Shown here: positions 29,905-30,005 of the stretch, piece after piece
How positions within the stretch are numbered: the stretch's first letter is position 1
Layout: each line of letters opens with the position of its first letter
Origin: Escherichia coli
GTDB taxonomy: Bacteria; Pseudomonadota; Gammaproteobacteria; Enterobacterales; Enterobacteriaceae
DNA: 64,000 bases
Assembly: GCF_016026235.1 (NCBI RefSeq)
Contig: NZ_CP065613.1
Direction: 5' to 3' (one strand)
Program-made: the position numbers and the translations under genes
The notes under the pieces: generated by a model
What the model was told of the DNA's origin: nothing
Databases searched by the model: none
What the model saw: the letters and a program-made list of their open reading frames with translations, nothing else

Positions 29905-29920
29905 TGTCCGGTGCCAAATA

Positions 29921-29946
29921 GCCTGATGCGCTTCGCTTATCAGGCC
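29921..29946. repeat. REP-like palindromic unit in the lfgD-lfgF gap
   Basis: gcctgatgcgcttcgcttatcaggcc palindrome. Confidence 0.5.
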
Positions 29947-30005
29947 AACACCAAAGTTATCGCCACCAGCACGCAGCTCGATGACGCGCTGTTCCAGGCA
30001 ATGTA

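Follow-up and report, generated by a model that had tools for sequence, protein, structure and literature searches.

Gene content of the Flag-2 locus

The window (the whole 64,000-nucleotide stretch of Escherichia coli DNA analysed here) contains a Flag-2 (lateral flagellar) locus, delimited by tblastn with all Flag-2 proteins of E. coli 042. It consists of three syntenic clusters, lfhAB-lfiRQPNM-lafK-lfiEFGHIJ, lfgNMABCDEFGHIJKL, and lafWZABCDEFSTU, at the yafL/rayT-dinB site; its synteny and flanking genes are those of the annotated FDAARGOS_943 and 042 records, and by synteny and site it is a 042-type Flag-2 locus as known in Enterobacterales. The conserved genes other than lfgE are full-length, stand in the 042 order, and encode proteins 92–100% identical to the 042 queries (tblastn), and all structural Flag-2 genes other than lfgE are intact (tblastn, NCBIfam); the full set of 39 conserved genes is thus short of lfgE, of which the window holds the last 22 codons. 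The genes that frame the locus and the missing gene are the following:

6105–6602: rayT (REP-associated tyrosine transposase), flanking the locus on the lfhA side
6788–46282: Flag-2 locus, lfhA to lafU
6788–8881, minus strand: lfhA, start of the locus in the window
28422–28757: lfgB, upstream of lfgC
28760–29191, plus strand: lfgC, intact (NCBIfam TIGR01395 FlgC, 132 bits against a cut-off of 102)
29191–29904, plus strand: lfgD (hook cap or hook assembly protein), intact, 97.5% identity to 042 LfgD
30006–30743, plus strand: lfgF (proximal rod), intact, 245 residues, 98% identity to 042 LfgF
30822–31607, plus strand: lfgG (distal rod), intact, 261 residues, 99.2% identity to 042 LfgG
about 45359–46282: lafU, far end of the locus
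46353–47408: dinB, flanking the locus on the lafU side

LfgD has FlgD NF007198 as its best NCBIfam family (E 2e-64, under the model cut-off), Pfam FlgD is on record for a protein identical to it, and its gene ends with a TGA at 29902–29904. For the ORFs that follow, a hook protein was defined by a score above the NCBIfam FlgE equivalog cut-off, the FlgE_D2 domain, and a length of about 400 residues. The initial annotation had named the 245- and 261-residue ORFs FlgF and FlgG from their size and termini, and the profiles agree: the first scores 318.6 bits on NF009280 (FlgF; cut-off 210) and the second 340.4 bits on TIGR02488 (FlgG; cut-off 252.75), while their best FlgE scores, 62 and 191 bits, stay under cut-offs of at least 400 bits (042 LfgE scores 534.6 bits on NF005286). 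According to Pfam, FlgE_D2 (PF07559) is present in the 400-residue LfgE of intact loci and absent from proteins identical to both ORFs. The idea that one of them might be a minimal hook protein, which the initial annotation had raised against its own reading, is ruled out by these FlgF and FlgG scores and by the missing FlgE_D2. Its other objection, that reference loci might likewise have no gene between lfgD and lfgF, fails as well, a 400-residue FlgE being found in 042, A22, NIST0056, L007, L009, and L017. A further hook-like ORF had been judged absent from the window, and tblastn with 042 LfgE against the whole of it returns, besides the remnant described below, only paralog-level matches to LfgG (30–43% identity). 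The letters of the window show that the hook gene has been lost and that no other gene in it could stand in for LfgE.

The lfgD-lfgF junction and its origin

The hook gene had been reported missing between lfgD and lfgF, and the two genes are indeed separated by exactly 101 bp (29905–30005), in which tblastn finds only a 22-codon remnant of lfgE. The features in and next to this interval are:

29921–29946, plus strand: REP hairpin GCCTGATGCGCTTCGCTTATCAGGCC, first REP of the former lfgD-lfgE cluster; an identical 26-mer lies at 21918–21943
29938–29946, plus strand: deletion junction, where one copy of the 9-bp direct repeat TATCAGGCC survives, placed by three-way alignment
29938–30006, plus strand: lfgE remnant, the last 22 codons (YQANTKVIATSTQLDDALFQAM) and TAA (tblastn E 5e-8)
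30744–30797: REP element between lfgF and lfgG, matched in 5425 of 5426 E. coli genomes, at a median of 24 sites in each

The interval is made up of the full 26-nt REP hairpin fused to the 3' end of lfgE, the codons of which (29938–30003) are 100% identical to residues 379–400 of 042 LfgE; the remnant TAA overlaps the lfgF ATG by 1 nt, an arrangement that is the same in intact loci. The short stop-free stretch that had been noticed as a continuation of the lfgD frame (29905–30003, reading CPVPNSLMRFAYQANTKVIATSTQLDDALFQAM and then a stop) is accounted for by this remnant: its last 22 codons are the lfgE 3' end, which happens by chance to share the frame of lfgD. A promoter and terminator scan of 28300–30900 found nothing on the plus strand in the gap, and Rfam gave no match between lfgD and lfgF.

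The palindrome in the gap, described at the outset as REP-like, has the properties of a REP (repetitive extragenic palindrome) element, an imperfect GC-rich hairpin of about 25–35 nt that is repeated in the genome: besides the identical copy listed above, the REP pattern matches five times in the window and not at all in shuffles, and the hairpin folds at -16.6 kcal/mol (z-score -2.3). An inverted-repeat search of the gap gave no result because the perfect arms of the REP are just 7 bp long. Three longer relatives lie at 33793–34019. The same REP stands at the equivalent site in intact loci, reading ...TTATCAGGCCTAC...; there the hairpin foot carries GTAG (CTAC on this strand; ...CAGGCCTAC), which the window lacks (...CAGGCCAAC) because the deletion put lfgE sequence in place of the CTAC tail.

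REPs are abundant in the intergenic regions of this Flag-2 locus, which adjoin rayT at 6105–6602. The relatives at 33793–34019 are three tandem z-type REPs, 97 bp apart, that form the REP cluster between lfgJ and lfgK; Rfam calls them, as well as 2600–2677, 5929–6006, and 13200–13277, naRNA4 (a REP-cluster-derived nucleoid-associated RNA).

Alignment to intact Flag-2 loci, the check that the initial annotation had proposed for the breakpoints, places both ends of the deletion in the 9-bp repeat and gives it a length of 1244–1363 bp. Intact loci with a REP cluster (A22, NIST0056, L007, L009, and L017) carry two copies of TATCAGGCC each: the first forms the right arm of the REP that comes first after lfgD (...GCTTATCAGGCCTAC...), and the second encodes Y-Q-A in the lfgE motif N-Y-Q-A-N (...AAC TAT CAG GCC AAC...). 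The copies are 1244 bp apart in L007, L009 (positions 4748 and 5992 in both), and L017, 1260 bp apart in NIST0056, and 1363 bp apart in A22; the spacing differs because the number of REPs in the cluster varies. The window has a single TATCAGGCC at the junction, with REP sequence on its left, lfgE on its right, and no filler bases, which is the configuration of a deletion between short direct repeats (two copies in the undeleted state, one at the junction, nothing inserted). Slippage and microhomology deletions classically leave behind one copy of a short direct repeat, and on the evidence of this alignment one repeat copy and the last 22 lfgE codons are what remains at the junction.

By chance, 0.34 copies of TATCAGGCC would be expected in the window; there are six, and each of them lies either in a REP-type palindrome or at the junction. 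The likeness between the REP and the lfgE 3' end extends beyond the 9 bp, both having CCTGATG, a spacer, and then TATCAGGCC, and this longer likeness may have favoured mispairing. The lfgE sequence coding for ...NLMTAQRNYQAN... is itself REP-like (CCTGATG, 15 nt, TATCAGGCC; L007 5960–6000, L017 2900–2945), and its inverted CCTGAT/ATCAGG arms make it a built-in weak spot near any z-type REP.

The ancestral locus had a REP cluster between lfgD and lfgE; 042 has no such cluster, its spacer being 23 bp, and the arrival of the cluster therefore created the second copy of TATCAGGCC. The right arm of the first REP (TTATCAGGCC) matches by chance the Y-Q-A codons in the conserved C-terminal motif of lfgE, and slipped mispairing or RecA-independent recombination joined the two TATCAGGCC copies, break repair being another conceivable route. 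The deletion took away the other REPs of the cluster, the ribosome-binding site of lfgE, and its codons 1–378, and left one repeat copy and the last 22 codons. An exact look-up of the LfgD and LfgF proteins found no relative with an intact lfgE and at least 99% identity in both flanks: L007, L009, and L017 have identical LfgD and LfgF proteins and an intact lfgE, and their flanks are just 95–99% identical. The size of the ancestral REP cluster, and hence the exact length of the deletion, is thus taken from more distant loci. With a probability of about 0.9, lfgE was lost in the ancestor of a clone through a single deletion of approximately 1.24 kb between the copies of a 9-bp repeat, from which we infer a Flag-2 system that is non-functional and decaying.

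REPs are known substrates for recombination and for cleavage by RayT (PMC3479197, PMC2817692), and there remains a small chance that the gene was removed by this REP-specific machinery, with RayT cleaving and rejoining at the REP, or by way of imported Flag-2 DNA (homology-facilitated illegitimate recombination). One end of the deletion falls exactly on the foot of the REP hairpin, the CTAC/GTAG tail is gone, rayT adjoins the locus, and RayT in vitro cuts at CT dinucleotides and can transfer strands (PMC3479197). CT dinucleotides flank both copies of the repeat, but they are too common to be informative, and joining at the flanking CT sites leaves two or zero copies of TATCAGGCC, not one; moreover, cleavage is guided by the GTAG tail of the REP, which RayT needs for binding (PMC3479197), and the lfgE side has GTTG. 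RayT cleavage at CT dinucleotides was rejected on both grounds: its predicted products do not agree with the junction, and there is no GTAG next to the lfgE copy. The import route could draw on the mosaic structure of the locus, the flanks of the junction having different closest relatives, and identity to 042 is 100% on the right of the junction against about 95% on the left, but this mosaicism spans the whole operon: SNPs counted in bins against five intact loci give a general mosaic without an abrupt change at the junction. Against both routes stands the single retained short repeat, typical of slippage or microhomology deletion. The junction and the missing GTAG on the lfgE side fit plain repeat slippage better than RayT chemistry.

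The mosaic itself, seen on comparing 28392–31607 with L005, L009, and L017, has a left flank 99.3% identical to L009 and a right flank (the lfgF region) 99.2% identical to L017, with the first 173 bp 100% identical to 042; elsewhere the lfg operon is 95–97% identical to every other E. coli examined, which fits frequent recombination at Flag-2.

Flag-2 function without LfgE

By the pathway of flagellar assembly established in Salmonella and E. coli, a basal body without a hook is not completed and its export does not switch to late substrates. To our knowledge, this hook-completion checkpoint has been demonstrated for Flag-1 and not for E. coli Flag-2. By analogy with that pathway, the Flag-2 basal body would be left incomplete for want of hook subunits and its export apparatus would stay off late substrates; the anti-sigma factor LfgM would remain in the cell and keep LafS inactive, and the LafS-dependent genes for the lateral flagellin (lafA) and the motor would be silent. 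It is reasonable to expect, as the initial annotation did, that no Flag-2 filament can form unless a hook comes from elsewhere; in the clone that carries the junction (described below), Flag-2 is most likely a dead, decaying system.

A hook from elsewhere could be the Flag-1 hook protein FlgE, supplied in trans, in which case Flag-2 would still work; we hold this to be very unlikely. Flag-1 flgE is found in 5422 of 5426 complete E. coli genomes and is so very probably present in the source genome, its product is 40% identical to LfgE over the full length, conserved termini included, and the other Flag-2 structural genes in the window are all intact. The lateral FlgH of Shewanella piezotolerans can take the place of the polar one, but polar genes failed to replace lateral ones in the synthesis of lateral flagella, and FlgL was not exchangeable (PMC5178100). 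FDAARGOS_943, the closest complete genome, has a Flag-1 flgE cut short by 13 codons (...AQTIKT, then stop) and a Flag-1 flgF with an internal stop; sister strains of the clone later lost lfgH and lfgL, as expected without selection; and Flag-2 expression was undetected even in E. coli with an intact locus (PMC4637896). The truncated flgE of FDAARGOS_943 is annotated as a normal CDS (record 1650000–1699000, L013 863–2843 and beyond).

Only a slim chance attaches, too, to a hook-less Flag-2 that is alive in a new role, either as an exporter locked on early substrates (LfgD, LafE (FliK), and cargo) or as a hybrid with the Flag-1 hook protein. A more exotic variant, in which read-through of the lfgD TGA yields an LfgD carrying the C-terminal polymerisation helix of LfgE, is a possibility because the remnant is in frame with lfgD.

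Clonal distribution, further lesions, and known systems

Among 5426 complete E. coli genomes, a 311-bp junction probe is contiguous in one (FDAARGOS_943, at 100% identity), and its two halves lie apart in 1278 others; lfgBCD is present in 1279 of these genomes, 1271 of which carry at least 80% of lfgE. The window and FDAARGOS_943 are 99.94% identical and have IS elements at different sites, and are thus separate genomes. No sign of a relocated lfgE was found in FDAARGOS_943: once the last 75 nt of the lfgE query are removed, its sole hit with at least 99% identity is lost, and the count of complete E. coli genomes falls from 1276 to 1275. Beyond this record, the junction occurs in at least 23 near-identical draft contigs. 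In exact-protein look-ups, 23 of 24 examined contigs with the LfgF allele of the window have the 101-bp interval, the sole exception being L017, with an intact lfgE and flanks approximately 96% identical to the window. The same junction is seen in L008, L011, L014, L015, and L016; L014 matches the window at 100% over 6738 bp, other contigs of the clone differ by 5–6 SNPs, and L008 (GCA_031665325.1) differs by one homopolymer indel in 8.7 kb. GCA_012772885.1 is a further near-identical assembly, and GCA_901482675.2, GCA_902503985.1, and GCA_017137395.1 also belong to the clone. Since it is common to many independent assemblies, the junction is no assembly artefact and marks one clone; judged by this distribution, the deletion has a single origin and is clone-specific, not typical of Flag-2. 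A collapse or mis-join at REP sequences has next to no chance of explaining the missing gene: REP clusters are repeated throughout the genome, and two 1-bp homopolymer differences between the window and its nearest relatives are possible sequencing errors, but a finished FDA-ARGOS chromosome shares the identical junction with more than 20 draft assemblies made independently, a repeat of 9 bp is nowhere near long enough to make an assembler skip a 1.2-kb unique gene, and the junction contains a clean, in-register lfgE remnant.

Two accessory genes of the locus are damaged in the window:

21955–24392, minus strand: Flag-2 glycosyltransferase with a 1-bp deletion at 22741 (tblastn split at residue 554)
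25091–26388, plus strand: ISEc60 (IS4 family) in a FliB-like lysine-N-methylase gene, with an 11-bp target duplication, GGGAAAGCTCC

The deletion at 22741, one G fewer in a G run than in both FDAARGOS_943 and 042, splits an 823-residue glycosyltransferase; the window alone has this deletion, which may stem from a sequencing error in the homopolymer. The insertion of ISEc60, which is also found in the methylase of L008, splits the encoded protein into residues 1–97 and 92–308 (tblastn), and the element matches both ISEc60 copies of FDAARGOS_943 at 99.6–99.8%. In its transposase gene, a CAG>TAG change at 25409 and, at 26058, an A7>A6 indel make this copy seem inactive, or else the indel is an error of sequencing. 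In FDAARGOS_943 the Flag-2 lesions are others: copies of ISEc60 interrupt lfgH and the glycosyltransferase, an IS5 is present, and lfgL contains an internal stop. The lfgE deletion is common to the clone, and the other lesions vary from isolate to isolate; the deletion therefore came first and further decay later, as expected once the system was no longer useful. In most members of the clone all other structural genes are intact, which may only reflect a recent origin (0–6 SNPs per 6.7 kb).

Near the damaged Flag-1 genes of FDAARGOS_943, csgA is flanked by IS5 and IS1, other genes are interrupted by IS3 and IS1, and pgaA, pgaB, and trhO are pseudogenes; with the flgE and flgF lesions this suggests an IS-expanded, probably non-motile lineage that appears to be losing motility and surface structures. 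On the minus strand of the window, two overlapping ORFs (187 and 273 residues) at 20276–21629, between a cytidylyltransferase and the glycosyltransferase, are absent from the 042 locus and gave no NCBIfam match; FDAARGOS_943 has an IS5 between them, and they look like cargo in a variable region of Flag-2. A remnant at 37502–37627 matches 44 residues of a 042 HTH protein at 59% identity. Ordinary features of this part of the chromosome are an Rfam match to IS009 (RF02111, 188 bits) at 63035–63233, downstream of yagU, and a tRNA at 56602–56674, which the FDAARGOS_943 record annotates as tRNA-Thr.

The case is one of ordinary clone-specific pseudogenisation with neatly defined breakpoints, in a cluster often degraded in E. 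coli; what distinguishes it is that the hook gene is hit, that it is restricted to one clone, and that the mechanism is resolved, with a REP arm giving one of the two repeat copies. It is one more instance of the repeated inactivation of Flag-2 in E. coli and a clean example, resolved to the breakpoints, of a gene deleted through microhomology that a REP element beside it supplied. Annotators should score this locus as non-functional, although about 38 of its genes look intact, and the 101-bp lfgD-lfgF interval with its unique junction is a simple marker for one E. coli clone; beyond such bookkeeping it matters little.

Neither function nor expression of Flag-2 has been demonstrated in E. coli (PMC3032704; PMC4637896). 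According to the passages quoted from De Maayer et al. 2020 (PMC6993521), 22% of enterobacterial flag-2 loci are without one or more of the conserved genes and often contain IS insertions, lfgF and lfiG being named as IS-prone; the loss of lfgE is not among the gene-loss examples in these passages, and a full-text literature search for lfgE returned no paper relevant to lateral flagella. In E. coli K-12 and Shigella, Flag-2 was deleted en bloc, leaving lfhA/fhiA and lafU/mbhA remnants (passages of PMC6993521, citing Ren et al. 2005). As described there, that deletion resembles the one in the window in that function is lost, the ends lie in direct repeats, and truncated gene remnants are left; it differs in that it spans approximately 40 kb and the whole cluster and affects most E. 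coli, whereas the deletion in the window spans 1.24–1.36 kb and a single gene in one clone, and takes one copy of its repeat from a REP element. The closer parallel in 042 is likewise a single essential axial-structure gene knocked out in an otherwise complete locus, but the gene lost there is lfgC, frameshifted according to the 042 annotation and intact in the window, which has lost the hook gene instead. The flgE null mutants of Salmonella and of E. coli Flag-1 form a rod without a hook, do not switch export, keep FlgM, and leave the sigma-28 genes silent, and the outcome predicted here is alike; unlike Flag-1, Flag-2 has its own regulators, LfgM, LafS, and LafK. As in REP/BIME rearrangements, finally, one end-point of the deletion lies in a canonical REP of a REP cluster by rayT; unlike in these, its partner is not a second REP, but a coding sequence that resembles one by chance.
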